A stretch of 64,000 bases of DNA from a bacterium (lineage in GTDB: Bacteria; Patescibacteriota; Minisyncoccia; Minisyncoccales; CG1-02-41-26), in NCBI GenBank assembly GCA_030616605.1, contig JAUWWY010000001.1:132251-196250 (forward strand), in the 5' to 3' direction. Of the stretch, positions 37,218-56,665 are shown one piece after another. The notes beneath the pieces are model-generated. The model ran no database searches. It saw only the letters and a program-made list of their open reading frames with translations, and was not told the DNA's origin. Made by a program: the position numbers and the translations under genes. Within the stretch, counting starts at the first letter, position 1, and each line of letters opens with the position of its first letter.

Positions 37218-37258
37218 AAATCTATATTTATTCAGAAACTATAATTTGTCAAGTAGGT

Positions 37259-37397
37259 TCTAATGTTGTCCACGACTCCCAGTATCAAAAATTCCATCGC
37301 TGGGTGATTTTTTATTTTAACTTGACTTTCAAGTAGAAAAGGTGATAGTTTGAAATTAGTAAAGGTCGATTAAAAAATAATTAAAAAAAATAAAAAT
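37259..37397 (+). promoter_or_regulatory. upstream module U, copy A (terminator-like hairpin, promoter, 46-nt 5'UTR)
   Basis: TTGACT (37322)-N18-TAGTTT with a TG extension. 64 nt (37321-37384) are identical to 38530-38593. Confidence 0.7.
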
Positions 37398-38336: not shown

Positions 38337-38378
38337 AATAGCTGATATGTTAATAACATATGCAAATAATGTTATAGC

Positions 38379-38414
38379 GCAGATAAACGATATCCCGCAG
38401 ATAAACGATATCCC
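38379..38414 (+). repeat. perfect 18-bp tandem duplication
   Basis: GCAGATAAACGATATCCC occurs twice. The palindrome ATATGTTA-A-TAACATAT lies at 38345-38361. Confidence 0.8.
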
Positions 38415-38467
38415 TTAGAAGTTCTTAGTCATACAATAAGTGAATGAAATTTTAGTCTACGAGAGGC

Positions 38468-38606
38468 TCTAATATTGTCCAAGTCCCAGAAGTCAACAAA
38501 AAACCCATCTCTGGGCAGTTTTTTATTAGCTTGACTTTCAAGTAGAAAAGGTGATAGTTTGAAATTAGTAAAGGTCGATTAAAAAATAATTAATAAAAAT
38601 AAAAAT
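38468..38606 (+). promoter_or_regulatory. upstream module U, copy B
   Basis: Same as copy A: TTGACT at 38531, TAGTTT at 38555. Confidence 0.7.
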
Positions 38607-39926
38607 ATGAAAAAAATATTTTTGTTTGGAATATTATTAGTAGTGATATTATCAGTTGCTATTGTTGGAGTAAAAGCAATAACAGCAGAAAACGGTACTT
38701 GTGTTATCATACCTAACCAGGGTTCTAATGCAGAACATTTAGGACAGGGTGTAGAAAACCAAGCAGGTAGTGTTTGTGATGCAACTGCAGATGGTGGTTG
38801 TGGAGCTTGTGTTGAACAATGTATTCAGTTCAGGAAGATAAAAAACTCATTTGGCTGTGATTTATGTGGAGGAGATGGCTTCTGTAATCCAATGTGTGCA
38901 GCTGGAGAGGATCCTGAAGTGGATCCTGATTGTATCGTATGTGTAGATAATGATGAAGATGGTTATGATGCAATAACTCCAATCTGTCCAACAGGTGATG
39001 ATTGTAATGATAATAATGCTAATGTATATCCTGGAGCAACTGAAGTTTGTGATGGAGTAGATAATGATTGTGATTCTAGTGTAGATGAGGATTATATAGA
39101 AACTTCTACAAGCTGTGGTGTTGGAGAATGTTCAGCTAATGGTTTATTGCAATGTATTGCTGGAAGTGAAGTAGATTCTTGTACAGCTGGTACTCCTAGT
39201 GCAGAAGTTTGTGACGGTCTAGATAATGATTGTGATGATTTAATAGATGAGAATTTGGGTAGCACAACATGTGGAATAGGAAAGTGTCAAGTTACCATAC
39301 AGAATTGTATTGGGGGTGTAGTACAAACTTGTATGCAAGGAAGTTCAACACCCGAAGTCTGTATTGATGGAATTATAAGCCCAGGAGAATGGGACCCTGC
39401 AGATACCATAGGGTTAGTGTTAGACTTGACAGTTAATGTACCTGAAGGAGGAACAACGCCAGCAAGATTATATGTAATGAATGATGCCGCTAATTTATAT
39501 CTTGCTCTGCGATTTGAACGCACTGTGGCTGATCCAGGAAATTCCTTGTCTTTTGAGTTTGATAATGACAATGATGGAATAAGGGAAGAAGGAGATGACG
39601 CAATCGTGTACAATGCAGCATCTGGCTTTTATGATGACTTCCGGATGCTACACGATGGCAGATGGGGCGGACCTAAAGATATAGCTTATGGCGGCACCAG
39701 TGATGGGGAAGGAGCCTTCTTAAATGATGGAACATATAGTGTTTACGAAATGTCGCATCCGCTTGACAGCGCAGATGACCTGCATGACTTTTCTCTGAGC
39801 CAAGGATATACTATCGGCTTTTATTTTCATCTAAGGATGATAGGGCCTGGTGGGGTATGGCCAGAGGATTATGGCGAGACTTATTACCCATCATATGGAA
39901 ATTACATGCAATTCACAGTAAATTAA
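38607..39926 (+). CDS. secreted Cys-rich protein with MopE-type putative metal-binding repeats and a C-terminal beta-sandwich (CBM9/DOMON-like) domain
   Basis: Repeats of the form DCNDNNANVYPGATEVCDGVDNDCD and EVCDGLDNDCDDLIDE. Confidence 0.6.
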   Translation: MKKIFLFGILLVVILSVAIVGVKAITAENGTCVIIPNQGSNAEHLGQGVENQAGSVCDATADGGCGACVEQCIQFRKIKNSFGCDLCGGDGFCNPMCAAGEDPEVDPDCIVCVDNDEDGYDAITPICPTGDDCNDNNANVYPGATEVCDGVDNDCDSSVDEDYIETSTSCGVGECSANGLLQCIAGSEVDSCTAGTPSAEVCDGLDNDCDDLIDENLGSTTCGIGKCQVTIQNCIGGVVQTCMQGSSTPEVCIDGIISPGEWDPADTIGLVLDLTVNVPEGGTTPARLYVMNDAANLYLALRFERTVADPGNSLSFEFDNDNDGIREEGDDAIVYNAASGFYDDFRMLHDGRWGGPKDIAYGGTSDGEGAFLNDGTYSVYEMSHPLDSADDLHDFSLSQGYTIGFYFHLRMIGPGGVWPEDYGETYYPSYGNYMQFTVN

Positions 39927-43549: not shown

Positions 43550-44125
43550 ATGAATAATGTTGAGATTGAAATCCAAGTTAATATTGAAAATAGTAAATCA
43601 TTAATAGATTTTTTGGAAAAAAATGGTCAATTTAAATCAGAAGAACATCAAAAGGATGAGTATTTTTCTCCAACTCATCGCAATTTTATTGAAGTCCGTC
43701 CAGTAAAAGAGTGGTTAAGGTTAAGAGATTCGGATGGTAAATATTCTATAAACTATAAGAACTGGTATTTTGATGAAGATGGGAAAAGTCGTCATTGTGA
43801 TGAATACGAAACAAAAGTAGAAGATTTGGCTCAAATCAAAAAGATATTAGAGGTTCTTAATTTTAAATCTATTGTTAAGGTTGATAAAATAAGAAAAACT
43901 TGGATATATAAAGATTATGAAATTGCTATAGATTCTGTGAAAGAATTGGGGGATTTTGTAGAGATTGAATATATCAATAAAGATGAAAAAGTAGACCCAA
44001 AAAAGGTTACAGAAGAAATGATTAATTTTCTTAAAAGTATTGGTTGTGGAAAAATAAAAAGAAACTATGTAGGTTATCCATTTCAGTTGTTATTTCCAGA
44101 AGAAGTAAAATTTGAGGAACAATAA
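43550..44125 (+). CDS. CYTH-domain protein (class IV adenylate cyclase / triphosphatase family)
   Basis: EIEIQV start, LRLRD, and a tunnel-fold pattern ending GDFVEIEY. Confidence 0.8.
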   Translation: MNNVEIEIQVNIENSKSLIDFLEKNGQFKSEEHQKDEYFSPTHRNFIEVRPVKEWLRLRDSDGKYSINYKNWYFDEDGKSRHCDEYETKVEDLAQIKKILEVLNFKSIVKVDKIRKTWIYKDYEIAIDSVKELGDFVEIEYINKDEKVDPKKVTEEMINFLKSIGCGKIKRNYVGYPFQLLFPEEVKFEEQ

Positions 44126-44155
44126 ATCGCCAAGATGGCGATTTTTTGGTAGAAT
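44126..44155 (+). promoter_or_regulatory. T-P module copy 6
   Basis: ATCGCC-aagat-GGCGAT-T6-GGTAGAAT. The ATG lies 7 nt after the -10. Confidence 0.65.
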
Positions 44156-44162
44156 GAGATAT

Positions 44163-44741
44163 ATGACTAAGATAATTTTAGCTACAACGTCTCCATATCG
44201 TATAGAAATATTTAGGGTTTTAGGAATTGATTTTGAGGTGAAGGGAAGTAATGTTGATGAATCCCAAGTAGAAAGAAATAATCCGGAAGAATTGGTAAAA
44301 AGCCTTTCAAAATTAAAAGCTGAAGTTGTTGTTACAAACCACTCTGATGCTATTGTGATTGGAATGGATTCAGTTGGGCTTTTTAATGGTCAAATTTTTG
44401 AAAAACCAAAATCAAGAGAGGAAGCATTCCAAAGATTAAAATCTCTTTCAGGGACTACTCATCAATTTTATACTGGGATTTATATGATAAATACAGGTTT
44501 GAAAAAAGTAATTTCAAAGGTTGTGAAAACCAAAGTCTTTATGAGAAATCTTTCAGATAGAGAAATTAACAAATATCTCGACGAAGATCCTCATTTTAAT
44601 ACCTACGCTCTGGGTTATGACCCTGTAAAACATTACAGTGCATCATTTGTCAAAAGAATAGAGGGTAGTTATTACAATCTGTTAGGAGGTATGCCTTTAG
44701 AGGTAATTATTGAAATGTTGCCTAAAGTTGGATATAAATAA
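44163..44741 (+). CDS. maf: Maf-like nucleoside triphosphate pyrophosphatase
   Basis: IILATTSPYR, DE.. and KP.s.eEA. Start trimmed to MTKI after the T-P module. Confidence 0.85.
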   Translation: MTKIILATTSPYRIEIFRVLGIDFEVKGSNVDESQVERNNPEELVKSLSKLKAEVVVTNHSDAIVIGMDSVGLFNGQIFEKPKSREEAFQRLKSLSGTTHQFYTGIYMINTGLKKVISKVVKTKVFMRNLSDREINKYLDEDPHFNTYALGYDPVKHYSASFVKRIEGSYYNLLGGMPLEVIIEMLPKVGYK

Positions 44742-44862
44742 CAGGTTGTAAAATCGTCCCATTTTCTACAGCCATCAAAAAAGCCCATTGCTGGGTAATT
44801 TTTATTTTTCTTAGATATGGTAAAATAATAGAAAGGTCAAAATTAAAAAAATATCCAAAAAC

Positions 44863-44994
44863 ATGAAAAAGAAAACCAAAACCAGAGAATGGACAGTCTA
44901 TAGAAGCTCAATAACTGGTAGATTTGTTACGAAAAAACATGCCAAACAAAAACCAAAAACTACCGAGAAAGAAAGAGTAAAAATACGCAAATAG
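44863..44994 (+). CDS. 43-aa basic protein (not in the ORF track)
   Basis: MKKKTKTREWTVYRSSITGRFVTKKHAKQKPKTTEKERVKIRK, preceded by a diverged U-like module at 44781-44862. Confidence 0.3.
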   Translation: MKKKTKTREWTVYRSSITGRFVTKKHAKQKPKTTEKERVKIRK

Positions 44995-45017
44995 CAACTA
45001 TTTTTTGTCCTTGAGAT

Positions 45018-45036
45018 GGCGATTTTTTGGTAGAAT
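45018..45036 (+). promoter_or_regulatory. T-P module copy 7 (left arm lost)
   Basis: GGCGATTTTTTGGTAGAAT. The ATG lies 6 nt after the -10. Confidence 0.6.
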
Positions 45037-45042
45037 GAGAAT

Positions 45043-45501
45043 ATGCCACATATTCATAAACTCATAGATTTTGTAGTTGACATATTTATTGTTTATAAAG
45101 ACAAAATTCTTTTAATCCATCATAGAGGACAAAATAAATGGCTACCTATAGGTGGGCATATTGAATTAGATGAAGACCCAGAGCAAGCCCTTTTTAGAGA
45201 AATAAAAGAAGAATGTGGTTTAGAGATTGAGATTCTTGGAGAAAAGCCTTTAGTTCAGTCTCCCATAGCAAAATTTCTATACCCGCCAGTCTTTTTAGAT
45301 ATTCACAAAATCTCTGATACTCACAAGCATGTAGGGCTTTTCTATTTTGCCAAGGCCAAAAATGATAAAGCTGTATTGAATCAAAGAGAACACAAAGGAA
45401 TCAAATGGTTCAGCAAAGAAGATTTAGATAACCCTGATTTTAATCTTGACCCAATTATTATATTCTGTGCGAAAGAGGCCTTAAAAAAACTGGCTTGGTA
45501 G
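45043..45501 (+). CDS. NUDIX hydrolase
   Basis: Nudix box GGHIELDEDPEQALFREIKEECGLE. Confidence 0.85.
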   Translation: MPHIHKLIDFVVDIFIVYKDKILLIHHRGQNKWLPIGGHIELDEDPEQALFREIKEECGLEIEILGEKPLVQSPIAKFLYPPVFLDIHKISDTHKHVGLFYFAKAKNDKAVLNQREHKGIKWFSKEDLDNPDFNLDPIIIFCAKEALKKLAW

Positions 45502-45608
45502 ATATAATTTATCCTTAAATATGGGTTGCTGGAATAGTATGTATTAACTTGGTATAATAAGAATAAAAGGTCGGCTATATTTTGGTCACATTAAAAACGA
45601 AATTAAAA

Positions 45609-45764
45609 ATGAATACAAAAAATATTGGAGTAATTATTTTGGTTATAGTATTGATTGCTTTGGCTTGTTATTTATATTGGGGTCTAACAGAATGTAAGAC
45701 TGCGGCAACAGAATTGGGAACACAATTACAAGAGTGTGGAGAAGCTTTAACCAACCTTCAGTAG
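45609..45764 (+). CDS. small single-TM protein
   Basis: MNTKNIGVIILVIVLIALACYLYWG. TATAAT at 45553. Confidence 0.35.
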   Translation: MNTKNIGVIILVIVLIALACYLYWGLTECKTAATELGTQLQECGEALTNLQ

Positions 45765-45934
45765 GCGTGTGCTCCTTATCTTCCCGTAGAGTAATTAAAA
45801 ATTTTAATAAGAATCTCCGATTAAAGGGTCACTAGATTACTATGTGACCTTTTTTTTAAAGTCATCGATTGACAAATAGCAGTTTTTATGCTAATCTATT
45901 TTTAGTACCTAAACTTAATAAAAAGGAGAAAGAC

Positions 45935-46228
45935 ATGCCGAATATCATGATATGCGGGTTCCAACCTAAAAGGGCAGAGGGGTTAAGAACCAGTATCGAA
46001 ATAATTATGCGGAATATGAGCTTGGGTGACGAAGCGTTAACGTCGATCGTGGATATGGAAGCCAAGTCCTGTGACGGGACAAGGACCCCCATGCCTTATC
46101 TCCGCATCTGTTCCACTGATGAGGGTGAAATCCAAAAAATCATCAATACCTTCAAGGAGGAGGGGATAAAAGTCGACGTTGAGTGGCTGGTCCTGAACGG
46201 ATTCATCCCTGCTAACAAAATGACCTGA
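45935..46228 (+). CDS. hypothetical protein (GC-rich islet)
   Basis: SD AAAAGGAG 8 nt upstream. TTGACA-N17-TAATCT promoter. Terminator AAAGGCGTTC..GAACGCCTTT at about 46281-46308. Confidence 0.5.
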   Translation: MPNIMICGFQPKRAEGLRTSIEIIMRNMSLGDEALTSIVDMEAKSCDGTRTPMPYLRICSTDEGEIQKIINTFKEEGIKVDVEWLVLNGFIPANKMT

Positions 46229-46374
46229 CAGCTGGCATCTGAGTAAACTGAGGTACAGCTGGTCCCTCACTCTCACCAATAAAGGCGTTCTTATGAACGC
46301 CTTTTTCTTTGTCCTTTCATGAGCTAAGATAAGGGTAGTTCAATAAAAATAAAAAATAATAGAAGGACAGAACA

Positions 46375-46725
46375 ATGACAGATTTTTTACTTTCCCGGAA
46401 ATACTCAGGACCCCTGAAGGTTATCATTCACCCGCTCGGGAACGAAGAGCCCTTCAGTTTTACACCTCATTTCAGGGACTCAACACTCTTTGACTATGTC
46501 GGTCATGCCTGTGCCTGTATTTTCACAAACATGACCACTCAGTTGTCGGTGTGCACGAGACCCGAAGATTGGGAGGTGGTTCGGTTTGCTCCCGACGAGA
46601 ACATATTGGAGGTCTTGCAGGTAGGAGGCGAAGAGCTGGAGATTGAAATAGACGACCCACAGCGTTTATTATATTTCCTTAATACCATGGCATTCCTGCT
46701 ATTAGCAAAACCTCAATCGCAGTGA
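46375..46725 (+). CDS. hypothetical protein (GC-rich islet)
   Basis: 116 aa at about 47% GC. Terminator AAAACCCTAGGG..CCCTAGGGTTTT downstream. Confidence 0.5.
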   Translation: MTDFLLSRKYSGPLKVIIHPLGNEEPFSFTPHFRDSTLFDYVGHACACIFTNMTTQLSVCTRPEDWEVVRFAPDENILEVLQVGGEELEIEIDDPQRLLYFLNTMAFLLLAKPQSQ

Positions 46726-46867
46726 GGGAAGCCGTGATATATGGCTTGAGTTTTTAAAAACCCTAGGGATAACCCTAGGGTTTTAGTTACGCTGTAATTG
46801 ACAGGAATATACCTACATGCTATAAACAATACAGTTCTTGGAAAATTAAAATCAGAAAGGAATAGTC

Positions 46868-47161
46868 ATGAAAGAAGTGACAATTCAGAAAATCGATAGC
46901 ATCCGTGCTACCTACAACGCTACCTACGACACTTTCCTGATTCCCATTATGATTGGGACTGCTGCCTGTTTAGTTGTAATACCTTTAGTTATAACGTTCG
47001 GCATACTTCATGTTATTAACATGGGAGTGGCAGGACTCATTACTGCGTGTCTTATCGTTCTCGGCGGTCTCATCCTATACCTTGGCAACAGGCATTTCCA
47101 GCGGCTGAGAAACCGTTTCCATCTTTCTATAGAAAATCTTTCTTTAGAAAATGATGCTTGA
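46868..47161 (+). CDS. small membrane protein (GC-rich islet)
   Basis: Two TM segments. SD GAAAGGAA. Confidence 0.45.
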   Translation: MKEVTIQKIDSIRATYNATYDTFLIPIMIGTAACLVVIPLVITFGILHVINMGVAGLITACLIVLGGLILYLGNRHFQRLRNRFHLSIENLSLENDA

Positions 47162-47319
47162 CCCTTCTGTTCATCACCAAAAAAAGCCGAAAGTCTAATA
47201 AGACAAGTAGGCTTTTTTCATATAAAGGATTTTGTTTGGACTTGACTTTTTAATATTAATCTGGTATTATTAAAAAACTGTTCTTTAAATCTTAAATAAG
47301 CCAATAAAAGGAGAAAACG

Positions 47320-47913
47320 ATGAGAAAGATAATCATGTGTGTGGTTGTTTTCCTGTTTGTCCATGTCCAATTGGCCTCGGCACAGGGACTGGAACTTTCC
47401 GAAGCAACTACCAATGTCGGTAAAAGCGCATTCATCTCCGGGTTTGACATTACTCTAAAATTCAAAGGAGGTGGCAACCTGTTAGACGTGACAGGAAATG
47501 ATCAAAGAGTTCGTGCTACTTATCTTTGGGATTTTCCCTCGTCTATCAATGCAGGTATTTGCGGAGGTTTTTTCAAAAACATGCCTTTTGTAGGACCCTA
47601 TGTAACCTTTGCTCCATTCAGCTTCCTGTCTTTTCTTGAGTGGGTTGGCTGGAGTGGAGGAAAGCCGGATAATCCCGGGACGGAAATTAACTTCTTTTTT
47701 CATGACACAGCTGTTTTTCTAAATATTAAGAGTTTTACTCTCAGCTATGTTCATGAAAATTTCATGGAAGAGGAAGTATCGATTCCCGGAGTAACTTATG
47801 AAACGCCGATAAATAACGACTTTGAGTTTTCTATAGGCGTAGATTATAAGTTCAGTAAGGACTCGAAAGACGAACCCCTTTTCCATATGGGAGTTTCATA
47901 TTCCCCAGAATAA
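47320..47913 (+). CDS. secreted protein of unknown function (GC-rich islet)
   Basis: Signal peptide ..HVQLASA|QG. SD AAAAGGAG. Alternating beta-strand-like pattern. Confidence 0.5.
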   Translation: MRKIIMCVVVFLFVHVQLASAQGLELSEATTNVGKSAFISGFDITLKFKGGGNLLDVTGNDQRVRATYLWDFPSSINAGICGGFFKNMPFVGPYVTFAPFSFLSFLEWVGWSGGKPDNPGTEINFFFHDTAVFLNIKSFTLSYVHENFMEEEVSIPGVTYETPINNDFEFSIGVDYKFSKDSKDEPLFHMGVSYSPE

Positions 47914-48000
47914 CCGAATATCCTACATTGTTCATATAGAGGGATAAGATTTAATTCTTGTCCCTCTTTTTATTTAGAGAAATATTGGTAAAATTGAAAT

Positions 48001-48852
48001 ATGATAGAAAATATTGTTATATCCAATCCAGAAGAATTAGAAAAATCAAAAAAATCAATTTCTGAGGCTGGACCTGACAAGCTTCATGTTTTAGCTGACT
48101 TTGATAGAACTCTAACAACAGCTTTTATTGAGGGGAAAAGCGTGCCCTCTCTTATTTCGCTTTTACGTGATGGGAATTATTTAACGCCTGATTATGCTCA
48201 AAAAGCCAATAAACTTTACGCTAAATACCATCCAATTGAAATTGACCCGAAAATTCCATTAGAAAAAAAGAAGGATGCAATGCTTGAATGGTGGACAACT
48301 CACTCTAATTTGTTGATTAAATCGGGATTAAACAAAAAGGATTTAAAAAAACTTGTTGAATCCAAAAAGATTAAATTTAGAGATGGATTTGCAGGTTTTA
48401 TTGATTTTTTAAAAAGCTATGAGATTCCTTTAGTTATTATGTCCTCAAGTGGATTGGGTAATAATCTTATTTCAATGTTTTTAGAAAAACAAGAAAAGTT
48501 ATACGATAACATTTATATTATTTCTAATTCCTATGAATGGGACAAAAACAATAATGCAGTTGGTGTCAAGAAGCCGATTATTCATGCGATGAACAAAGAT
48601 GAAACTATTATCAAGGATTTTTCAGTTTTTGAGCTACTTAAGAATAGAAAAAATGTTTTATTATTAGGAGATAACTTGAATGACATTGGGATGGTAAAGG
48701 GCTTTGATTATGATAATTTGATTAAAATAGGATTCCTCAATGAAAATATGGAGGAGAACTTGGAATATTATAAAAATAATTACGATGTCATAATTTTAGA
48801 TGATTCTTCTATGGATTTTGTTAATGGGTTATTAAAAGAAATGATAAGATAA
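48001..48852 (+). CDS. HAD-type 5'-nucleotidase (UMPH-1/cytosolic 5'-nucleotidase III-like)
   Basis: LADFDRTLT motif I, IMSSSG and LLLGDNLNDIGM. Confidence 0.6.
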   Translation: MIENIVISNPEELEKSKKSISEAGPDKLHVLADFDRTLTTAFIEGKSVPSLISLLRDGNYLTPDYAQKANKLYAKYHPIEIDPKIPLEKKKDAMLEWWTTHSNLLIKSGLNKKDLKKLVESKKIKFRDGFAGFIDFLKSYEIPLVIMSSSGLGNNLISMFLEKQEKLYDNIYIISNSYEWDKNNNAVGVKKPIIHAMNKDETIIKDFSVFELLKNRKNVLLLGDNLNDIGMVKGFDYDNLIKIGFLNENMEENLEYYKNNYDVIILDDSSMDFVNGLLKEMIR

Positions 48853-48891
48853 TTTTCTTGACAAACCTTTTTAGAAACGCATAATGAAGAT

Positions 48892-49198
48892 GTTCTTTCA
48901 AAATACAGCATCGAACTTGTTAGCTAGGCGTCGGACTTTTACCCCCGAGCCAAAAGTGTGAGTGGGCCTACCTTTCTTCTACCTGCCAAGCAAAGGTCTC
49001 ACAACTATCGCTCTCTGTATTGCTCTCTGCGAAAATAAACGGCCAATACAGGAGGGCCTGATTCTTATATACGGTGGTCATCCGCATACCTCGACCATAC
49101 AGGAACCATACAGGCAATCTGAAAGCCTCCTGAGCGTGTAGCTAACAAGTTCACATTACTTCTATAGTCCACCTTTATATATTAAGGTGGACTTTTCT
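48892..49198 (+). ncRNA. multi-copy structured RNA family, copy 1 (about 307 nt)
   Basis: Promoter TTGACA (48858)-N16-CATAAT (48880). P1 is 48913-48926 paired with 49139-49152. Terminator at 49166-49198. Confidence 0.7.
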
Positions 49199-49240
49199 CT
49201 TTACTCTTGACAATTCTTTATAATAGTGTATAATAAAGAT

Positions 49241-49498
49241 GTTCTTTTAAAATATAGTATAGAATCTGTTAGCTGGGTGTCGGACTTTTGCCCCCGAAAA
49301 AAGTGTGAGTGGGTCTACCTTTTCAGCTCTCTAAGGTCTCACACACCTCTGTTGTCCAAACCTACCCCTTTTGACACAAAAATGACCCAAACAGGAGGGT
49401 CTAGCACTCCCAAGGCACAGACAATCTGAAAGCCTCCTGGACGTCTAGCTAACAACTTTTCTCTAGTCCACCTTTTATATATCAGGTGGACTTTTTTT
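49241..49498 (+). ncRNA. multi-copy structured RNA family, copy 2 (about 258 nt)
   Basis: Promoter TTGACA (49207)-N16-TATAAT (49229). Same block order as copy 1. Terminator at 49465-49498. Confidence 0.7.
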
Positions 49499-49509
49499 GT
49501 GGTCAAACC

Positions 49510-49538
49510 TCGCTAAAAAGGCATCTTTTTGATAGAAT
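49510..49538 (+). promoter_or_regulatory. T-P module copy 8 (diverged)
   Basis: CTCGCTAAAAAGGCATCTTTTTGATAGAAT. The ATG lies 12 nt after the -10. Confidence 0.5.
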
Positions 49539-49550
49539 AAAGTAAATCAT

Positions 49551-51014
49551 ATGTTGAAAACCACAACCAAACAAAAAGAATATGTTTTTATGTGGAGTCA
49601 AACTCCAATAATGCCAAGTTCTTGGGGTACTGCTTTTTCTCTTAAAAAGGGACGTGATATTTATAGAAAAGGAGGAATTATTTTTAGTTATTATGACGGA
49701 AAAATAATTACAACTTACATACCAAAACAAGATTTGGAAATTCGAAAAAACATAGACAGCATAAAATACTTAAGTCCAAAATTTTTTAAAAAATATCAAT
49801 TGAGGTATAAAAAAGAAAAAGCTCAATGGTGGAATTGGATTAGAAAGATAGAGAGAAAAGATTATTCCAAAATTTCAATAAATCAACTAAAAAAAGACCA
49901 TTTGAAATTTCAAGAATACATGCGTGATGCTCTTGCTTATTTTGGGAGCACCAGGCCCGAATTTACTTATCAAGCAGAGCAGAAATTAGAAAAGATACTT
50001 AAAAAATATTTTAAAGACAACTGGGGAAATGTTTTTACTGTTTTAGTTGATTCATTAAAACTAGATAATGTTCAAAAAGAACATTTAGAAAGCTTAAAGT
50101 TATTAACTGCCAAAATTACAAAAGAAAAGCTTTTGATTCATACTTCTAAATTTCCTTGGCTTGTTTCTGATTATCTTGAAGAAAAAAAAGCTTTATCTTT
50201 TTTAAGAAAGATTTTTATCAAAGAAAAAGGGAGTTACAAAGAAGAAAAGAACAGATTAAAAAATGAAAAAAGAAAATTAAAACAAAAACAGGAAAAGATA
50301 TATAAAAAATTAAATGAAAAAGATGAAAAAGAAGCAAGATATTTAGCATCTTTTTTGCAAATACAGTCAGTAGAACGAATGAATATTAAATCTTATTGGG
50401 CAGGATGTTATTATTTAGCCAGAAATATGTGGTATAAAATTGCTGAAATCCTTGACTTAAAAGTAAGTGATATTTTAAAGTTTCTAACTCCATTAGAAAT
50501 TCAACAACTATTGAGTGGTAAATATAAAGAAGATATCAGCGAGCTTATCAAATTGCGCAAAAAATCCTATGCTATTAGTTATGAAGGAGGGGAAAAAGTA
50601 GAAATTTTTACTTATAAAGAAGCAGATAAATTATTTAAAGAAAGGATAAAAAAACCTTCTACTAGAGATAAAATAATTAAAGGACAATCCGCCTCCTTAG
50701 GAATTTATAAAGGAAAGGTTAGAAAAATAATAGTAGGTGATTTAGAGATATTACAAGATAGCATTAAGAAGTTTAAAAAGGGTGAGGTATTAGTAACTAG
50801 TATGACTCAACCTAATATGATGGTAATTGCCAGAAAAGCCGGGGCAATTGTCGCTGATGAGGGTGGGATTACGTCTCATGCAGCCATTATCTCCCGGGAA
50901 CTTAAAATTCCCTGTATTGTTGGCTGTTTAAAAACTATGCAAGTCCTCAATGACGGCGATTTAGTGGAAGTAGATGCAAATAAAGGAATTATTAAGATAT
51001 TAAAAAAGAAATAA
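49551..51014 (+). CDS. PEP-utilising enzyme mobile (swivel phosphohistidine) domain protein
   Basis: C-terminal GGITSHAAIISRELKIPCIVG. The roughly 380-aa N-terminal region is unassigned. Confidence 0.7.
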   Translation: MLKTTTKQKEYVFMWSQTPIMPSSWGTAFSLKKGRDIYRKGGIIFSYYDGKIITTYIPKQDLEIRKNIDSIKYLSPKFFKKYQLRYKKEKAQWWNWIRKIERKDYSKISINQLKKDHLKFQEYMRDALAYFGSTRPEFTYQAEQKLEKILKKYFKDNWGNVFTVLVDSLKLDNVQKEHLESLKLLTAKITKEKLLIHTSKFPWLVSDYLEEKKALSFLRKIFIKEKGSYKEEKNRLKNEKRKLKQKQEKIYKKLNEKDEKEARYLASFLQIQSVERMNIKSYWAGCYYLARNMWYKIAEILDLKVSDILKFLTPLEIQQLLSGKYKEDISELIKLRKKSYAISYEGGEKVEIFTYKEADKLFKERIKKPSTRDKIIKGQSASLGIYKGKVRKIIVGDLEILQDSIKKFKKGEVLVTSMTQPNMMVIARKAGAIVADEGGITSHAAIISRELKIPCIVGCLKTMQVLNDGDLVEVDANKGIIKILKKK

Positions 51015-51030
51015 GAAAAGCCCGAACATG

Positions 51031-51507
51031 TTAAATATTCGGGCTTTTAGTGTTAAGAGAAAGGACTCTTAGAAAAGAGTTGACAATTTCCCTTGCAACC
51101 TGCTGGAGTACTTTTGAGCATTCCTGGTAGGCGGCAAGGTCTTTTTTGAATGGATTGGGCACTCCACCTGCACCTTTGTTAGCAACAAGGATTTTTTCGA
51201 GCGGAATACCCAAGTATGTAAGGATATTGAGTTGTTCTTCCTCCATACACACTATTAAGTCATAATCTATAAGATTGAGGTCTCCAAACCAACGACTGCG
51301 GTGATTTCGGAGGTTAAGACCAAGCTCAACCATACAGGTTATTGAATGTTCATTTGCGGAATTGCCTTTTGTTTCCTGAAGAGTTCCAGCGCTTTCCACT
51401 TTAACACCCTGGATGCCTTTTTCTTGAAGTTCTTTTTTAAGTAAAACTTCAAGCATCGGGCTTCTACAGGTGTTTCCTTTACATAGACACAATAGGTTCT
51501 GGACCAT
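51031..51507 (-). CDS. low-molecular-weight protein-tyrosine phosphatase / ArsC-like
   Basis: CLCKGNTCRSP (CX5R-S) loop and a DP motif. Strong SD GAAAGGAGG. GC above background. Confidence 0.8.
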   Translation of the reverse strand: MVQNLLCLCKGNTCRSPMLEVLLKKELQEKGIQGVKVESAGTLQETKGNSANEHSITCMVELGLNLRNHRSRWFGDLNLIDYDLIVCMEEEQLNILTYLGIPLEKILVANKGAGGVPNPFKKDLAAYQECSKVLQQVAREIVNSFLRVLSLNTKSPNI

Positions 51508-51646
51508 TAGTGCCTCCTTTCAGCGGAATATATTTTTGTTAAGGAACTTGATACCTCAATTATAACATAATTATTCAGAAATGTCAATTAAGTTAAAATC
51601 TCAATAGTTTTCTTGACAAATCTTTTTAGAAACGCATAATAAAGAT

Positions 51647-51936
51647 GTTCTTTCAAAATTTAGCATTGAACTTGTTAGTTAGGCGTCGGACTTTCTTCCT
51701 CCGGCTAAAAGTGTGAGTGGGCCTACCTTTCTTCTACCAGCTAAAGAAAGGTCTCACAACTATCGCTCTCTGTACGCTCTCTGCGAAAATAAACGGCCAA
51801 TACAGGAGGGCCCTCTGTTCTGGACTCCTATGCGGTAAACCCCAGCTAACAGGCAATCTGAAAGCCTCCTGAGCGTGTAGCTAACAAGTTCACATTACTT
51901 CTATAGTCCACCTTTATATATTAAGGTGGACTTTTT
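51647..51936 (+). ncRNA. multi-copy structured RNA family, copy 3 (about 290 nt)
   Basis: Promoter TTGACA (51613)-N16-CATAAT (51635). Near-identical to copy 1 except at three variable sites. Terminator at 51905-51936. Confidence 0.7.
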
Positions 51937-52020
51937 CTATTGAACTGAAATTTGACAAATCTTTTATTATCTATTATAATCTTGGTAGAAATTCTTTAAT
52001 AACTTAATAAAAGGAAAATC

Positions 52021-52785
52021 ATGAATGAAACGATTGTAATGATTCATGGTATGTGGGGTGGCGGATGGTGCTGGGAGAACTACCGGAATTTTTTTGAGCA
52101 GAGAGGTTATCATTGTATTACTCCTACCTTACGTTTTCACGATATGGCTCCGAATGAAGTTCCTAATTCTCAATTAGGAACTTTCAGTCTATTGGATTAC
52201 GCCAAAGACCTTGAAAGAGAAATCCATGAACTTGACGTGACTCCTGTCCTAATGGGGCACTCCATGGGTGGACTTCTTGCCCAAATTCTTGCAAGTCGAG
52301 GATTAGGGAAAAGTCTTGTCCTCTTAAATCCATCAGTGCCCTATGGGATTATGGCTCTAAAACTTTCAGTGATAAGAAGTTTCTGGAGTATCCTTACAAA
52401 ATGGGGCTTTTGGAAAAAGCCAATGCGACAGACTTTTAAAGAAGCGGTTTATTCAATAATGCAGCTATTGACTGTCGAAGACCAAAAAGAGCTTTTTGAA
52501 AAATTCGTTTACGAGTCTGGTCGGGCAGGAGCTGAAATCGGGTTCTGGTTTCTTGATTCAAAAGCAGCAACAAAAGTTGATGAATTAAAAATTACCTGTC
52601 CTGTTTTGATTGTTGCTGGAAGCAAAGACAGGATTACTCCGGTAAAGGTTACCCGAAAAGTTGCGGATAAATATAGGTTTGTCTCAACTTACAGGGAATT
52701 TCCAAACCATGCCCATTGGCTCATTGAAGAACCAGACTGGCAGGAAATAGCAAGCTATATCTCTATTTGGTTGAATCGGGTGTAA
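52021..52785 (+). CDS. alpha/beta-fold hydrolase
   Basis: GHSMGG nucleophile elbow, with D and H near the C-terminus. Has its own TTGACA-N17-TATAAT promoter. Confidence 0.8.
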   Translation: MNETIVMIHGMWGGGWCWENYRNFFEQRGYHCITPTLRFHDMAPNEVPNSQLGTFSLLDYAKDLEREIHELDVTPVLMGHSMGGLLAQILASRGLGKSLVLLNPSVPYGIMALKLSVIRSFWSILTKWGFWKKPMRQTFKEAVYSIMQLLTVEDQKELFEKFVYESGRAGAEIGFWFLDSKAATKVDELKITCPVLIVAGSKDRITPVKVTRKVADKYRFVSTYREFPNHAHWLIEEPDWQEIASYISIWLNRV

Positions 52786-52799
52786 GGTGTAATTAAATA

Positions 52800-52827
52800 A
52801 AAAATCGCCAAAAAATTGGCGATTTTT
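52800..52827. terminator. T-P family hairpin copy 9 (terminator only)
   Basis: AAAAATCGCCAA-aaaa-TTGGCGATTTTT. Confidence 0.7.
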
Positions 52828-52870
52828 TATTTACCCTTGACAAGTTTTAATAAATGTGTATAATGAAGAT

Positions 52871-53095
52871 GTTCATTAAAATATATAGAACTTGTTAGCT
52901 GAGCGTCGGACTTTTTGGGTGTGAGCGGGTCTACCTTTCTACCTGGAAAAGGTCTCACATCATTATCTCTCTCGTTCTCTCCGATAAACAATAAAGACCA
53001 ATACAGAGGATTATTCCTGAAAGCCTACTGAGCGTTTAGCTGACAAGTTCTCATCATTGCTAAGTCCATCTGATATACAAAGATGGACTTTTTTT
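52871..53095 (+). ncRNA. multi-copy structured RNA family, copy 4 (about 225 nt, minimal form)
   Basis: Promoter TTGACA (52837)-N16-TATAAT (52859). Lacks the P2 hairpin and has a 14-nt P4 insert. Terminator AGTCCATCT..AGATGGACT at 53063-53095. Confidence 0.7.
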
Positions 53096-53147
53096 GTTGA
53101 AAGATTGATAAAAAATAAAAAAAGCGTTAAAGTGAAGAAAAAGTCAA

Positions 53148-53768
53148 ATGCCCCAAAAAAAATTAAGAAAAATTAAAGACGAATTTCTTGATTTAGTCTG
53201 GCAAGAATTTAAATTAGTTGAGAGTGTCAGTACTCTTAATCCCTTGGCAAGAAATAAAGTTCTTCAAGCCCTGGATTTCGCCCGAAAAGGACACTGGGGG
53301 CAGCTTCGCTATGAAGGAATACCCTATATTATTCATCCTATTAGAACAGCCCTTATTTTAATTGAAGAACTCAATATCAAAGAGCCAGATGTTTTATCGG
53401 CCGCTCTTTTACACGACATAGTTGAAGACACGACAATAACAATTGAGGAAATAAAAAATCAATTTGGCCCTAAAATTAGCCGTTTAGTTAAAGGTTTAAC
53501 TCGAATAAGACCAAAAAATGAAACTGAGAAAGAAAAAGAAAGAAACAAACTAAAATGGGTTCAAAAAATAGGCCGTTCTAATAAGAAAATCCGCTTGATT
53601 AAACTATGCGACATCCTTGATAATCATCGGTCTATGGGTTTTATTCCTAAAAATAATCCTTGTTTTAAGAAAATTCCTCGCTGGAAAAGAGAGCTTTGTC
53701 GCTATTTGCCAATCGCTAAAAAAACCAATCAAAAATTATTTCAACTTCTCGGCCAGTTTAAAAAGTAA
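53148..53768 (+). CDS. HD-domain (p)ppGpp hydrolase-like protein (RelA/SpoT hydrolase domain only)
   Basis: HWGQLRYEGIPYIIHPIRTA and AALLHDIVEDT. Confidence 0.75.
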   Translation: MPQKKLRKIKDEFLDLVWQEFKLVESVSTLNPLARNKVLQALDFARKGHWGQLRYEGIPYIIHPIRTALILIEELNIKEPDVLSAALLHDIVEDTTITIEEIKNQFGPKISRLVKGLTRIRPKNETEKEKERNKLKWVQKIGRSNKKIRLIKLCDILDNHRSMGFIPKNNPCFKKIPRWKRELCRYLPIAKKTNQKLFQLLGQFKK

Positions 53769-53777
53769 AATAAGGTA

Positions 53778-54209
53778 ATGAAAAATAATAATAAACCAGT
53801 ATTGTGCAGTGCTTGTTTGTTAGGGATAAATTGTAGATATAATGGAGAAAGCAAATCAAATGATAAGGTTATTGAATTAGCTAAAAAAGAGATTTTGATT
53901 CCTGTTTGCCCTGAACAATTGGGCGGTTTATCAACGCCGCGCGAACCCGCGGAACAACAAGGGGAAAGGGTTATAACAAAATCAGGCAGAGAGGTTACTG
54001 AAAATTTTCTAAGAGGAGCAGAACAAGTTTTAAAATTAGCAAAATTATTGAATATTAAAGAAGCAGTCTTAAAACAAAAAAGTCCATCCTGTGGCTGCGG
54101 AAAAATTTATGACGGAACTTTTTCTGATAGAATTATTAAAGGTGATGGAGTTACAACTGATTTATTAAAAAAGAATGGAATTAAGGTGGTAACAGAAGAA
54201 GATTTATAG
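53778..54209 (+). CDS. DUF523 / TudS-like (2-thiouracil desulfurase family) protein
   Basis: CSACLLGINCRYNG, PVCPEQLGG and SPSCG. Confidence 0.7.
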   Translation: MKNNNKPVLCSACLLGINCRYNGESKSNDKVIELAKKEILIPVCPEQLGGLSTPREPAEQQGERVITKSGREVTENFLRGAEQVLKLAKLLNIKEAVLKQKSPSCGCGKIYDGTFSDRIIKGDGVTTDLLKKNGIKVVTEEDL

Positions 54210-54212
54210 TAT

Positions 54213-54521
54213 ATGAAATATAATAAACTTGTTAGGGATAAAATTCCCAAAATTATTAAAGAAAAAGGAATTGTTCCTTTTACTCATATTGCCGACGATG
54301 AAGAGTATTGGCAGAAATTAAAAGAAAAACTTAAAGAAGAAGTTAATGAGTTTTTAGAAAACAGCAATGAAGATGAATTGGCCGATATTTTAGAGGTTGT
54401 TTATGCTATCCGTGATTTCAAGAAAATTGACAAAGAAAAGTTAGAAACTGTTAGAAAAAAGAAAGCTGAAAAAAGAGGCGGGTTTAAAGATAAAATAATC
54501 CTTGATGAAACAAACGTTTGA
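54213..54521 (+). CDS. MazG-superfamily house-cleaning NTP pyrophosphohydrolase (PRA-PH-like)
   Basis: YNKLVRDKIP, EEVNEF, ELADILEV and RGGF. Confidence 0.7.
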   Translation: MKYNKLVRDKIPKIIKEKGIVPFTHIADDEEYWQKLKEKLKEEVNEFLENSNEDELADILEVVYAIRDFKKIDKEKLETVRKKKAEKRGGFKDKIILDETNV

Positions 54522-54597
54522 AAATATCTAAAAATCTGCTAAAATAGTATCTTAGTTCTTTCAATTTTAGAACCTTAAAGAAGAAAGAGAGGTTAGA

Positions 54598-54996
54598 TTG
54601 AAAAAAAAAGTTAAATCTAAAAAAGGAAAGGGGCCTGGTTGGTTAGAAATTCAGAGAAAACTCAGAAAAGAAGTTCTCCCCAAAGAAAAAAAGACAGAGT
54701 GGATTGGCCAAATGCGAGAAGAGATGGTCAGAAGCGTTCTTGAAGAATTGAAGCAAAAAGGAGAAATTCATGATTTTGTAGGTACTGGAAAGTTGACTTT
54801 TGCTGATTTAATCAAAGGGGTGGATTTTATCTTTGTTTATGTGGAGGATGTTTATAAGACTATTTCTTTTTCAGTTACCGGTCCGAAATGGCTTGCCAAA
54901 CACCGAGCAGCTCATCCGGAAATTCCGACTATCTCGGTTCGTCTAAACGAAAGCAGCATATCCATAGAAAATAAAATCTTAGGCCTAAAAAAATAA
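54598..54996 (+). CDS. hypothetical basic protein (TTG start)
   Basis: ORF only. No motif recognised. Confidence 0.35.
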   Translation: MKKKVKSKKGKGPGWLEIQRKLRKEVLPKEKKTEWIGQMREEMVRSVLEELKQKGEIHDFVGTGKLTFADLIKGVDFIFVYVEDVYKTISFSVTGPKWLAKHRAAHPEIPTISVRLNESSISIENKILGLKK

Positions 54997-55042
54997 GGGC
55001 AGCAATTTAAAAAACATTTGCTGTCCTTTTTTTATTATATTG

Positions 55043-55720
55043 TTATTTTACAATTCGCCATTTAATATCTGATTCTTTGCCGGCAAATTCCAGCCATTCA
55101 CCATATTTATCAATAACATACCATTTCTTTCGGGTCTTTGACCAAACCATAGGCATATCGTCATAAAATGGCTTTTTAACCACTTCTTTTGGTTTTAATC
55201 TGTCAAGTTCCAACCATTTTTTAAAAACTGTTTCAATGGCATAATCTAAATCTCTTGATTTTGCCCATTGAGCAACGACATTAATTGCCTTTTCGGCTTT
55301 TTTAACAGAGCCAGCCAATTCTAAAAGCTGTTTTGCCGGCTTGGTAAATCTTGAATAAATAATTTTTCTCTTTTTGGCATTTTTTTTAAGTTCGTCTAAA
55401 CTTAAACCTTTGCTGTAAAAATAATAAGTAACAATCTGGCGGATAGCGGTTTCTTCTTTCAGTTCTTGATAATACTTAATCTTTCCTTTTTTAATATATT
55501 CTTCAATTTTTTTAGCAATACTTTTGCCTATGCCTGAAATTTTTTCAAGACCCTTAATACCTTCTTTTTTGTAAAGCTGAGAAACATCTTCTTTTAAATT
55601 TTCCAAAGCCAAAGCTGCTTTATGGTAAGCTCTTGGTTTATAAGCCACTCCTTTTATGTCTAAATATTCTTCTATCTCGTATAATAGCTTGGCAATTTTT
55701 TGATTAGTATAAGGATTCAT
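55043..55720 (-). CDS. helix-hairpin-helix protein related to the Pol X N-terminal (8-kDa/HhH) region
   Basis: NQKIAKLLYEIEEYL..AYKPRAYHKAA and ISGIGKSIAKKI. Start trimmed to MNPYTNQ so it does not overlap the upstream gene. Confidence 0.5.
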   Translation of the reverse strand: MNPYTNQKIAKLLYEIEEYLDIKGVAYKPRAYHKAALALENLKEDVSQLYKKEGIKGLEKISGIGKSIAKKIEEYIKKGKIKYYQELKEETAIRQIVTYYFYSKGLSLDELKKNAKKRKIIYSRFTKPAKQLLELAGSVKKAEKAINVVAQWAKSRDLDYAIETVFKKWLELDRLKPKEVVKKPFYDDMPMVWSKTRKKWYVIDKYGEWLEFAGKESDIKWRIVK

Positions 55721-55727
55721 AAAAATT

Positions 55728-56036
55728 TTAGTTTTTAAAAAAATTCTTAATCCTTTCTGCTTCTTTCCCAACAACTTCACCTTCATATTCTCCACTATGA
55801 GCAGGGACATTTTTGTAAATCGGTTTTTTTTGGTCAAGATGTAAATTGAGAAATATTTCTTTGGTTTCTTTATTCTCTTTCAGCCAAACATGAAATCTGG
55901 GAAAGGAAATTCCTTTAATCGCTCGGATAAAAGTCATTTCTTTGGTTTCTTTTTTTTCTCCCCAAAAATGATAACCAAGTTTTCGCATTAAATTTTGAAT
56001 ATTCTCTCTTGATATATTTTTAACAACAAATTTCAT
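55728..56036 (-). CDS. hypothetical protein
   Basis: 102 aa, 7 nt upstream of the next minus-strand gene. Confidence 0.4.
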   Translation of the reverse strand: MKFVVKNISRENIQNLMRKLGYHFWGEKKETKEMTFIRAIKGISFPRFHVWLKENKETKEIFLNLHLDQKKPIYKNVPAHSGEYEGEVVGKEAERIKNFFKN

Positions 56037-56080
56037 GATTACTAATTGAATCTTATCATAAATTAAGATAAAATTTAAGA

Positions 56081-56665
56081 ATGCGCAGGATTTTTATTGC
56101 TATAAATTTACCAGATAAAATTAAAACTGAGTTGGAAAATTTAGAAAAAGAAACTAATGATTTATTCCCTCAAGAACTAAGGGAAGAAATGATGCGCTGG
56201 CTTAAAAAAGAAAATATACACTTGACCTTGCTTTTTATCGGCTATGTTAAAGACGAAGAAATCCCTCAGGTTTGCCAAGTTGTAAAAAAAATAGCTCAAA
56301 CACAAAGACCCTTTTCTTTGAAATTTGAAAAACTATGTTATGGACCACCTAAGACAAGCCCGCCCCGCTTAATTTGGACAGATATAGAAAAAAAGCCGGA
56401 ATTGCTGGAAATTGCTAAAAAATTAAAAAAAGACATGGCTGAAGCTGGTATTTTGAAAAGAATTGAAAAAAGAGAATTTTCTCCCCACATCACTTTGGCA
56501 AGAATTAAAACCTGGTATTGGCGAAAAATTGAACCAGAAGAAAGACCGGAAATTGAAAAAGAAATTGATTTTAATTTTGAGGTCAAATCTATTGAAGTAA
56601 TGGAGAGTAAACTCAAAAGAACTGGTGCAGAATATAGCGTAGTAGAATCAATGACCCTCGGCTAA
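56081..56665 (+). CDS. thpR: RNA 2',3'-cyclic phosphodiesterase (2H family, ThpR/LigT)
   Basis: Two HxT motifs: HLTLLFIG and HITLAR. Confidence 0.85.
   Translation: MRRIFIAINLPDKIKTELENLEKETNDLFPQELREEMMRWLKKENIHLTLLFIGYVKDEEIPQVCQVVKKIAQTQRPFSLKFEKLCYGPPKTSPPRLIWTDIEKKPELLEIAKKLKKDMAEAGILKRIEKREFSPHITLARIKTWYWRKIEPEERPEIEKEIDFNFEVKSIEVMESKLKRTGAEYSVVESMTLG

Follow-up and report, generated by a model that had tools for sequence, protein, structure and literature searches.

Several bacterial small RNAs (sRNAs) are encoded by sibling genes, among them Qrr1-5 of Vibrio, LhrC1-5 of Listeria and the csRNAs of Streptococcus, with products of about 50-110 nt. In these families, as in PrrF1/2 and OmrA/B, the paralogous non-coding genes lie clustered or in tandem, each is transcribed from a promoter of its own to a Rho-independent terminator, and the RNAs join a conserved core to segments that differ from copy to copy. 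The same organization is seen in the 64-kb stretch of Patescibacteria DNA analysed here (the window), in which four paralogous units, c1 to c4, lie on the plus strand within 4.3 kb, with a tandem c1-c2 layout that resembles those of LhrC1-4 and PrrF1-2. Unlike the sibling sRNAs, the RNAs of these units would be about 225-310 nt long, as predicted from promoter and terminator positions, with a 19-bp closing helix, a pseudoknotted core and no evident Hfq-type module, and Rfam detects no sequence or covariance-model similarity between those families and the copies. The multicopy bacterial sRNA gene is a kind already known; what is unusual here is the size, the combination of closing helix and pseudoknot, the modular variability, and the host in the Candidate Phyla Radiation (CPR).

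Other described RNAs share other parts of this picture. The raiA motif RNA and other Breaker/Weinberg motif RNAs are orphan structured non-coding RNAs with their own promoter and terminator. As here, RNAs of the raiA type are about 200 nt long, are transcribed on their own, and have conserved junction nucleotides, a pseudoknot and no obvious cis target; the RNAs of the window differ in having four copies at one locus, in being confined so far to one narrow Patescibacteria lineage, and in matching none of the motif models of Rfam 15. In Y RNAs, YrlA and 6S RNA the 5' and 3' regions pair in a long, sequence-conserved stem that closes a variable interior, and Y RNAs also occur as paralogues with a conserved stem and variable loops, both as here, but the copies have neither a tRNA-like module nor a rod with a central bubble, nor any Rfam match to these RNAs. 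C-rich apical-loop motifs (CCCCC, CCUCC) like those of c1-c3 are found in RsaE/RoxS and further C-rich-seed sRNAs of Firmicutes, among them the hairpins of RNAIII, and RsaE/RoxS have pyrimidine-rich unpaired stretches able to pair with G-rich ribosome-binding sites, as the copies could; however, the C-rich loop is absent from c4-type copies and altered in one orthologue, and the overall architecture is unrelated.

The four units have syntenic orthologues with compensatory changes and lie outside Rfam. As such, we consider it very probable that they form a real, selected family of independently transcribed, structured non-coding RNAs, as the original prediction, made from the sequence of the window, had proposed. 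The fuller statement that they are four paralogous genes for a lineage-restricted, previously undescribed sRNA, including a trans-acting mode of action, is in our judgement about an even call when taken as a whole. The regulatory and structural RNAs of Patescibacteria are almost unexplored, and here a genome of the sub-megabase type appears to encode one RNA, with a pseudoknotted core, in four strongly promoted genes. The family is a concrete and compact candidate for a first CPR-specific sRNA or ribonucleoprotein (RNP) family, with a defined fold and testable covariation.

Four units from promoter to terminator

The four units, counted from the -35 box, lie at about 48858-49198 (c1), 49207-49498 (c2), 51613-51937 (c3) and 52837-53095 (c4). 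When an nhmmer profile built from them was run over the window, it recovered the four positions at which they had been predicted (48892-49198, 49241-49500, 51647-51938 and 52872-53096; E values from 2e-83 to 2e-59) and no fifth copy in the 64 kb, and a rebuilt six-sequence profile agreed. The window has exactly four occurrences of each of the conserved blocks GTGTGAGYGGGYCTACCTTT, CTGAAAGCCTMCTG and TTGACAA-N-ATAATRAAGATGTTC; shuffled versions of it have about zero of the first and third blocks and 0.5 of the second.

Each unit has a promoter of the CTTGACA-N16-(C/T)ATAAT form first described for it, TTGACA-16-TATAAT in c2 and c4 and TTGACA-16-CATAAT in c1 and c3, and the six best sigma-70 matches between 47.5 and 54.5 kb are the four copy promoters together with the promoters of two neighbouring genes, for an LMWPc phosphatase and an alpha/beta hydrolase. 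All four copies also end, again as described, in a hairpin AGUCCAYCU/AGRUGGACU followed by a T-run. The near-consensus promoter and the intrinsic terminator strongly support each gene being its own predicted transcription unit.

No conserved coding potential accompanies this signal. The ATG that follows the -10 box opens frames of 23, 3, 23 and 9 codons in c1 to c4, and in the orthologues, by inspection, of about 56 codons (L008b) and 3 codons (L014). The claim that the copies have no conserved open reading frame (ORF) holds: none is common to the four copies on either strand, the substitutions show no 3-nt periodicity, the spurious ORFs over the copies have no match in the protein collection, and c1 and c2 have only one 5-residue word in common in their best frame.

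The copies could not be assigned to a known RNA family either, in agreement with the prediction. At gathering thresholds, Rfam 15 finds only four tRNAs in the whole window, and at E<=10 the matches that overlap the copies in 48700-53300 are all sub-threshold and driven by the terminators (suhB, 21.2 bits against a gathering score of 41; L10_leader, 20.9 against 44; Qrr, 17.9 against 50). The only match of the RsaE model (RF01820) has 19.3 bits (gathering score 79; E = 8.1) and lies outside the copies, on the minus strand at 49504-49605. The region also has no tRNA or tmRNA according to ARAGORN, and we found no comparable RNA in the literature on structured or small RNAs of CPR/Patescibacteria. 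A sub-threshold suhB/mmgR match (32.7 bits against 41, E = 5e-4) at 51005-51085 on the minus strand coincides with the bidirectional terminator between the PEP-utiliser and LMWPc genes and is most likely just a terminator.

Several specific candidates were considered and rejected. A retron msr-msd has no reverse transcriptase among the neighbouring proteins, and the weak RT-2 RNA match (22.3 bits against 40) is outside the copies, inside the PEP-utiliser ORF. Neither sequence nor context fits a hammerhead-like CUGANGA element, integron attC core sites, a type I or III toxin-antitoxin system or a leaderless micro-ORF (MFF...).

Orthologous copies and the predicted fold

Homologues were reached by synteny through the HD and alpha/beta-hydrolase genes, with the nhmmer profiles used for copy detection. 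They are present in three Logan metagenome contigs, L008, L014 and L015, in the same places as in the window, on either side of the alpha/beta-hydrolase gene and ahead of the HD gene. In L008 (SRR22387873), whose HD and hydrolase proteins are 80% and 78% identical to those of the window, a c3-type copy truncated by the edge of the contig is followed by the hydrolase gene with its promoter, then by a complete c4-type copy that has both promoter and terminator, and lastly by the HD gene. L014, with a hydrolase 96% identical, carries the 5' half of a c4-type copy, and L015, with a hydrolase 85% identical, carries the 3' end of a c3-type copy. At the c4 position of L015 (917-1030) lies a decayed mini-copy of about 110 nt, which keeps the closing helix P1, UCGGACUUU, GUGAGCGGGGGCC and CUGAAAA and has no promoter, distal P3, P4 or terminator; the gene that follows encodes a short-chain dehydrogenase, not the HD protein. 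There are at least two subtypes, a long c3 type and a minimal c4 type, at the same positions in related genomes, which points strongly to selection maintaining the paralogues.

Further away, no copy was found. HD loci at 61-64% identity (L009-L013) have different neighbours and no copy, and seven loci reached through PEP-utiliser synteny (L001-L004 and L016-L018) are also without copies, including L004, in which the order of PEP-utiliser and LMWPc genes is kept with no RNA there. An exact scan for GTGTGAGYGGGYCTACCTTT gave no match in GTDB genomes, JGI metagenomes or IMG/VR viral contigs, and four further viral exact-block scans gave none; these patterns are insensitive, and because the first three of them, checked by eye on the orthologues, would match only L014, the absence is weak evidence. 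Matches of a 3' block in two JGI loci (L005 and L006) were taken as chance, as nhmmer finds nothing in either and L006 has no other conserved block, and a 5'-block match in a Eubacteriales locus (L007) was also a chance match. A blastn comparison with phage records gave no match. On this evidence the family seems confined to a narrow lineage, with the two subtypes at fixed positions within it.

Minimum free energy folds contain a long closing helix in all four copies, with z-scores of -2.4 to -5.4 against shuffles. In the fold model, given here in columns of alignment A2, P1 (8-27/233-252) consists of 15+4 bp, joins regions near both ends and closes a multi-helix junction. It encloses P2 (31-36/48-53), P3 (54-58/94-98 and 66-71/88-93 around a 7-nt internal loop) and P4a (148-154/225-231), beyond which P4b forms a variable arm; a pseudoknot of 4-5 bp pairs P3-loop positions 61-64 with 140-143, the GRCC just upstream of P4. 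This matches the helices as predicted, including the perfect 14-bp P1 of c1, the internal loop of P3, P4, and the long-range pairing that is GGCC with GGCC in some copies, GGGTC:GACCC in another and GGTC:GACC in c4. The statement that c4 lacks P2 needs a small correction: the full hairpin is absent, and a possible 4-bp stub (ACUU-UUU-GGGU) remains.

Two alternatives to this model were rejected. RNAalifold proposed a different register for P3 (GUGGG/CUCAC), which the U-to-C change of c4 breaks, and the register of the original prediction was therefore preferred. A local hairpin GRCC/GGYC in place of the pseudoknot does not serve as a general solution, since the second GGYC is missing from c4-type copies.

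The model pairs 95.5% of cells across the four copies of the window. Extended to the nine sequences of alignment A4, it has 94.0% of 334 cells paired; sliding the 3' partners lowers this to 32-48%. Seven pairs (10 cells) have changed on both sides. None of 500 shuffles reached the observed covariation score or number of double-change cells, although A4 comprises six full-length and three partial sequences from closely related genomes and the shuffle control ignores phylogeny. One pseudoknot pair is C-G in c1, c3, L008a and L008b and U-A in c2 and c4, so that a double change that keeps the pairing sets c4 apart from L008b, its own orthologue. Likewise, the outer pair of P3 goes from G-C to A-U in L014; a P4a pair goes from A-U to G-C in L008b, where an A/A mismatch of c4 is also repaired; and a P1 pair goes from G-C to A-U in the L015 mini-copy. 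The terminator stem is fully paired in seven sequences, with two double changes. That differences between copies preserve pairing was claimed from the four copies alone, and the orthologues extend it with compensatory changes in P1, P3, the pseudoknot, P4 and the terminator. In pairwise comparisons, 9-15% of paired columns changed compared with 15-47% of unpaired columns.

The RNAs of the window and of L008 share 82.5-85% identity, a level similar to that of whole coding sequences, whereas four-fold degenerate sites share 65-67%. Against the very close L014, the c4 5' half (92%) has diverged to a similar degree as four-fold sites (93%), and all of its helix changes preserve pairing. This is the pattern expected for an RNA selected for its fold. 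The P1 sequence (GAACUUGUUAGCU/AGCUAACAAGUUC) is near-invariant across members, and UCGGA after P1, GUGUG-GGGYCU-CCUU/AAGGU-UCA in P3, GRCCAAUACAG, CUGAAA in the P4 loop and the GUCCAYC core of the terminator are universal.

The peripheral elements, namely P2, the linker, the apical loop of P3 and the P4b arm, change fast. The C-rich P2 loop is confined to c1-c3; it reads CCUGCC in L008a, and only the P2 stub is left in c4, L008b and L014. The linker is CU-rich in five of the six full-length copies and is replaced in L008a by CGCAUUGGAGCAACAUAA; in the c4 type, 15 unpaired, pyrimidine-rich linker nucleotides (AUUAUCUCUCUCGUU) are invariant in three orthologues. The motif CAGGAGG, which resembles a Shine-Dalgarno (SD) sequence, becomes CAGGGGG or CAGGGG in L008, where P4a GGAGG/CCUCC is GGGGG/CUCC (L008a) or GGGG/CCCC (L008b); it lies inside a helix.

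The contrast of a conserved scaffold with replaced peripheral modules is most striking between c1 and c3 (48800-49240 against 51555-51990), which share about 97% identity over a stretch bounded exactly by TTTTCTTGACA and the terminator T-run, except for the P2 loop (7 of 12 positions), the P3 loop and the P4b arm of about 50 nt, which have been replaced. Either modules were replaced after the pair had recently duplicated, or gene conversion acted in patches. The 5' half of P4b in L008a resembles that of c1, not that of c3, so that either c3 acquired its arm by a recent exchange or only the scaffold was homogenised by gene conversion. We would also like to note that the c1 P4b arm holds an 11-nt tandem duplication, CCATACAGG(A/C)A, at 49095-49116, and that ATACAGG, the motif preceding P4a, occurs three times in c1.

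Mode of action and competing explanations

The mode of action that we tentatively favour, at somewhat less than even chances, is that the RNAs are trans-acting riboregulators built on a scaffold that a protein probably recognises, with specificity coming from the variable segments. The structured core (P1, P3 with the pseudoknot, and P4 presenting the CUGAAAG loop) would serve as the scaffold for protein recognition, and the unpaired, copy-specific segments (5' leader, linker, C-rich P2 loop and P4b) would give specificity by pairing with other RNAs. P1 is near-invariant even though a helix could covary, which suggests sequence-specific recognition or processing of the RNase III type.

Several observations weigh against this reading. 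The covariation, coming from so few full-length and partial sequences, is suggestive and not statistically established, and the 5' ends were placed from promoter geometry, about 5-7 nt past the -10 box. The near-identity of the c1 and c3 scaffolds may be due to gene conversion rather than constraint, and the decayed mini-copy of L015 means that individual copies can be lost. Only nucleotide house-cleaning enzymes, and no candidate for a partner protein, are encoded nearby. The candidate seeds are not universal, given the replaced linker of L008a and the missing C-rich loop of c4-type copies, and the start regions of the 59 ORFs of the window pair no better with the linkers, loops and leader than internal coding windows do.

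The last two points are what would be expected under the main rival, in which the RNA binds or sequesters a protein, or is part of an RNP, in the manner of 6S RNA, Y RNA or CsrB and without base-pairing targets. In such an RNA, the P1 sequence, the junction nucleotides (UCGG, CCAAUACAG) and the CUGAAAG loop would be protein contacts, and P2 and P4b would be dispensable. It would suit the almost invariant P1 of paralogues that differ in 25-47% of unpaired columns, the compact, pseudoknotted core, and the minimal c4 type, which is kept in relatives although it has neither a full P2 nor P4b. Nevertheless, Pfam scans of 30 neighbouring proteins found no Ro60/Rsr (TROVE), CsrA or RtcB, the 6S, Y RNA and CsrB-type models of Rfam find no match, and the invariant unpaired pyrimidine block of the c4-type orthologues looks more like a pairing seed. 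We regard this rival as rather unlikely, and it overlaps the riboregulator reading rather than excluding it.

A stronger form of the riboregulator idea, raised in the original prediction, is that the RNAs mimic the anti-SD sequence, like RsaE/RoxS, and occlude the SDs of a few GC-richer, probably foreign genes. The remark made with it, that the strongest SDs sit on GC-rich genes, is correct. Most genes of the window have no recognisable SD (median anti-SD duplex of -2.4 kcal/mol over 59 ORFs), and the strongest SDs (AAGGAGG or AAGGAG) do lie on GC-richer genes (0.41-0.50 against 0.33 overall), for example 51031-51507(-), 45935-46228, 47320-47913 and 14900-15637(-). Among the GC-richer genes with the strongest SDs are the LMWPc and alpha/beta-hydrolase genes that adjoin copies, and the hydrolase is 70-76% identical to proteins of other phyla. 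The CCCCC or CCUCC loops of c1-c3 and the mostly CU-rich linkers also suit this idea. A 16S anti-SD motif has been detected in only 48% of Parcubacteria genomes (PMC9297842); the window itself contains no rRNA.

However, over the 64 kb compared (59 genes x 7 seeds), start regions on average pair less well than internal coding windows; for the c1 linker, for instance, the means are -9.1 and -10.7 kcal/mol. The best single prediction, at -22.3 kcal/mol, pairs the c4 linker with the start region of 47320-47913 and lies only in the tail of about 1% of controls, out of all these trials, and the variable modules have no complementarity to the window beyond chance matches of 10-12 nt. Linker, C-rich loop and CAGGAGG are not kept across the orthologues, the last being changed and helical, and the RsaE model has no match to the copies. 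SD targeting of the RsaE kind, as first suggested, is not supported by these comparisons, and we consider it improbable. Less probable again, and something of a long shot, is a modular system in which a protein-recognised scaffold (P1, P3-pseudoknot, P4) carries rapidly exchanged, pyrimidine-rich, anti-SD-like modules (P2 loop, linker, P4b) for RNA-level xenogeneic control, by selective silencing or tuning, of the few SD-led acquired genes in an SD-poor genome whose lineage often lacks the 16S anti-SD, a reading to which the c1/c3 pair, with its near-identical scaffold and wholly replaced modules, would point. If either control of SD-led foreign genes or a new RNP were true, it would bear on gene regulation in minimal, host-dependent bacteria.

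Cis regulation, with the copies as riboswitch-like leaders whose terminators gate the PEP-utiliser, alpha/beta-hydrolase and HD phosphohydrolase genes, is unlikely, and we would give it very little weight. Each copy does lie upstream of a same-strand gene (with c1 upstream of c2), the P1-closed junction with its pseudoknot and A-rich strand before the pseudoknot 3' strand is aptamer-like, and the neighbourhood is rich in nucleotide-metabolism genes. Yet c1 is followed by another complete unit and not by a gene, and a 12/12 promoter for the hydrolase lies at 51952-51980, between the c3 terminator and the start codon. This promoter is also conserved in both L008 and L014, and L015 has a recognisable version of it, so c3 does not serve as the leader of the hydrolase gene. 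About 13 nt separate P1 from the terminator, and inspection by eye, with no systematic test run, showed no conserved antiterminator, the single possibility being a 5-bp GGACU/AGUCC pairing that is broken in L008b. No riboswitch family of Rfam matches.

Lastly, although the copies resemble miniature inverted-repeat transposable elements (MITEs) and REP/BOX/ERIC repeats in being repeated intergenic sequences with a long inverted repeat foldable as RNA (P1 being perfect over 14 bp and the c1 and c3 scaffolds nearly identical), flank genes that look horizontally acquired, are missing from syntenic sites of more distant relatives such as L004 and have decayed in L015, a selfish or neutral repeat, either bounded by P1 or made up of functionless recent segmental duplicates, is the least likely explanation and is largely refuted, including in the MITE form that the original prediction had named as a possible refuter, as the unit is a complete gene whose homology starts at the -35 box, about 55 nt before P1, and runs on to the T-run, about 45 nt past it, as no target-site duplications or direct repeats flank P1, as all copies have one orientation and keep their orthologous positions, as substitutions preserve pairing and conservation exceeds that of four-fold sites, and as no transposase, integrase or reverse transcriptase is nearby.

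Gene neighbourhood and feature coordinates

The genes around the copies encode CYTH, Maf, NUDIX, pyrimidine 5'-nucleotidase, PEP-utiliser swivelling-domain and, on the minus strand, low-molecular-weight phosphatase (LMWPc) proteins, followed by the alpha/beta hydrolase, an HD_4 phosphohydrolase, a 2-thiouracil desulfurase and LigT, and homologues of the neighbouring proteins carry the names Paceibacterota, Parcubacteria and Patescibacteria, in keeping with a Patescibacteria origin. In 43550-56665 the RNA genes are surrounded by a cluster of enzymes for nucleotide house-cleaning and RNA ends, with LigT a 2H phosphoesterase, the HD_4 hydrolase SpoT-like and the pyrimidine 5'-nucleotidase belonging to UMPH-1, a mostly eukaryotic family. 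The Pfam scans found no transposase, integrase, reverse transcriptase or Cas protein among the 30 neighbours. The alpha/beta hydrolase encoded between c3 and c4 (52021-52785) matches proteins of Chloroflexota, Poribacteria, Deltaproteobacteria and archaea at 70-76% identity, and therefore looks horizontally acquired; judged by its sequence, it appears to be a widely transferred gene that landed between two RNA genes. The coordinates of the RNA genes and their elements are listed in the table.

Table. Coordinates in the window of the four RNA genes with their promoters, helices, linkers and terminators
Feature	Position	Strand	Remarks
c1 promoter TTGACA-16-CATAAT	48858..48885	+	11/12 promoter match
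c1 RNA gene	48890..49198	+	5' end predicted; 3' end is the terminator T-run; nhmmer, alignment and fold
c1 P1 5' strand (GAACTTGTTAGCTA + GCGT)	48912..48931	+	
c1 P2 hairpin, C-rich loop	48935..48957	+	variable element
c1 P3 hairpin	48958..49002	+	internal loop TGGGCCT 48963-48969 is the pseudoknot 5' side
c1 linker, CU-rich then A-rich	49003..49040	+	not kept in orthologue L008a
c1 pseudoknot 3' strand GGCC	49041..49044	+	C-G to U-A covariation
c1 P4	49049..49132	+	encloses variable arm P4b and conserved CTGAAAG 49119-49125
c1 P4a	CAGGAGG 49049-49055 paired with CCTCCTG 49126-49132	+	
c1 P1 3' strand	49134..49153	+	
c1 intrinsic terminator	49166..49198	+	10-bp stem and T-run
c2 promoter TTGACA-16-TATAAT	49207..49234	+	12/12
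c2 RNA gene	49240..49498	+	profile, alignment and fold
c2 P1 5' strand	49261..49280	+	
c2 P3	49305..49342	+	internal loop TGGGTCT 49310-49316
c2 pseudoknot 3' strand GACC, then C	49384..49387	+	
c2 P4	49392..49439	+	P4a, short P4b and CTGAAAG 49426-49432
c2 P1 3' strand	49441..49460	+	
c2 terminator	49465..49498	+	AGTCCACCT / AGGTGGACT and T-run
c3 promoter	51613..51640	+	11/12
c3 RNA gene	51646..51937	+	scaffold ~97% identical to c1; P2 loop, P3 loop and P4b replaced
c3 P1 5' strand	51667..51686	+	
c3 P3	51713..51757	+	internal loop 51718-51724
c3 pseudoknot 3' strand GGCC	51795..51798	+	
c3 P4	51803..51871	+	P4a, P4b and CTGAAAG 51858-51864
c3 P1 3' strand	51873..51892	+	
c3 terminator	51905..51937	+	
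c4 promoter	52837..52864	+	12/12; kept in orthologues L008 and L014
c4 RNA gene, minimal version	52870..53095	+	stub P2, without P4b
c4 P1 5' strand	52887..52906	+	
c4 P3	52921..52958	+	internal loop CGGGTCT 52926-52932
c4 linker	52959..52995	+	ATTATCTCTCTCGTT invariant in three c4-type orthologues
c4 pseudoknot 3' strand GACC	52996..52999	+	GGCC in orthologue L008b with matching loop change
c4 P4a	53004..53030	+	terminal loop with CTGAAAG 53017-53023
c4 P1 3' strand	53032..53051	+	
c4 terminator	53063..53095	+	AGTCCATCT / AGATGGACT and T-run; C-G pair replaced by U-A

Some minor observations concern the adjoining genes. One gene for a PEP-utiliser, a protein with a phosphohistidine swivelling domain, was annotated in the window (49551-51014), and arrays of three to five such paralogues are present in the related L002, L003 and L004. 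The 5' leader of the LMWPc gene (51508-51530, minus strand) reads CCGCUGAAAGGAGGCACUAAUG and contains the CUGAAAG of the conserved P4-loop motif, and its AGGAGGC is complementary to GCCUCCU of the P4a 3' strand, both being 7-mers for which chance is possible; the LMWPc orthologue of L004 (6460-6490) also has GCUGAAAGGA. Elsewhere in the window, and unrelated to the RNA family, 35933-39926 encodes putative surface proteins with cohesin-like, collagen-repeat and MopE metal-binding motifs.

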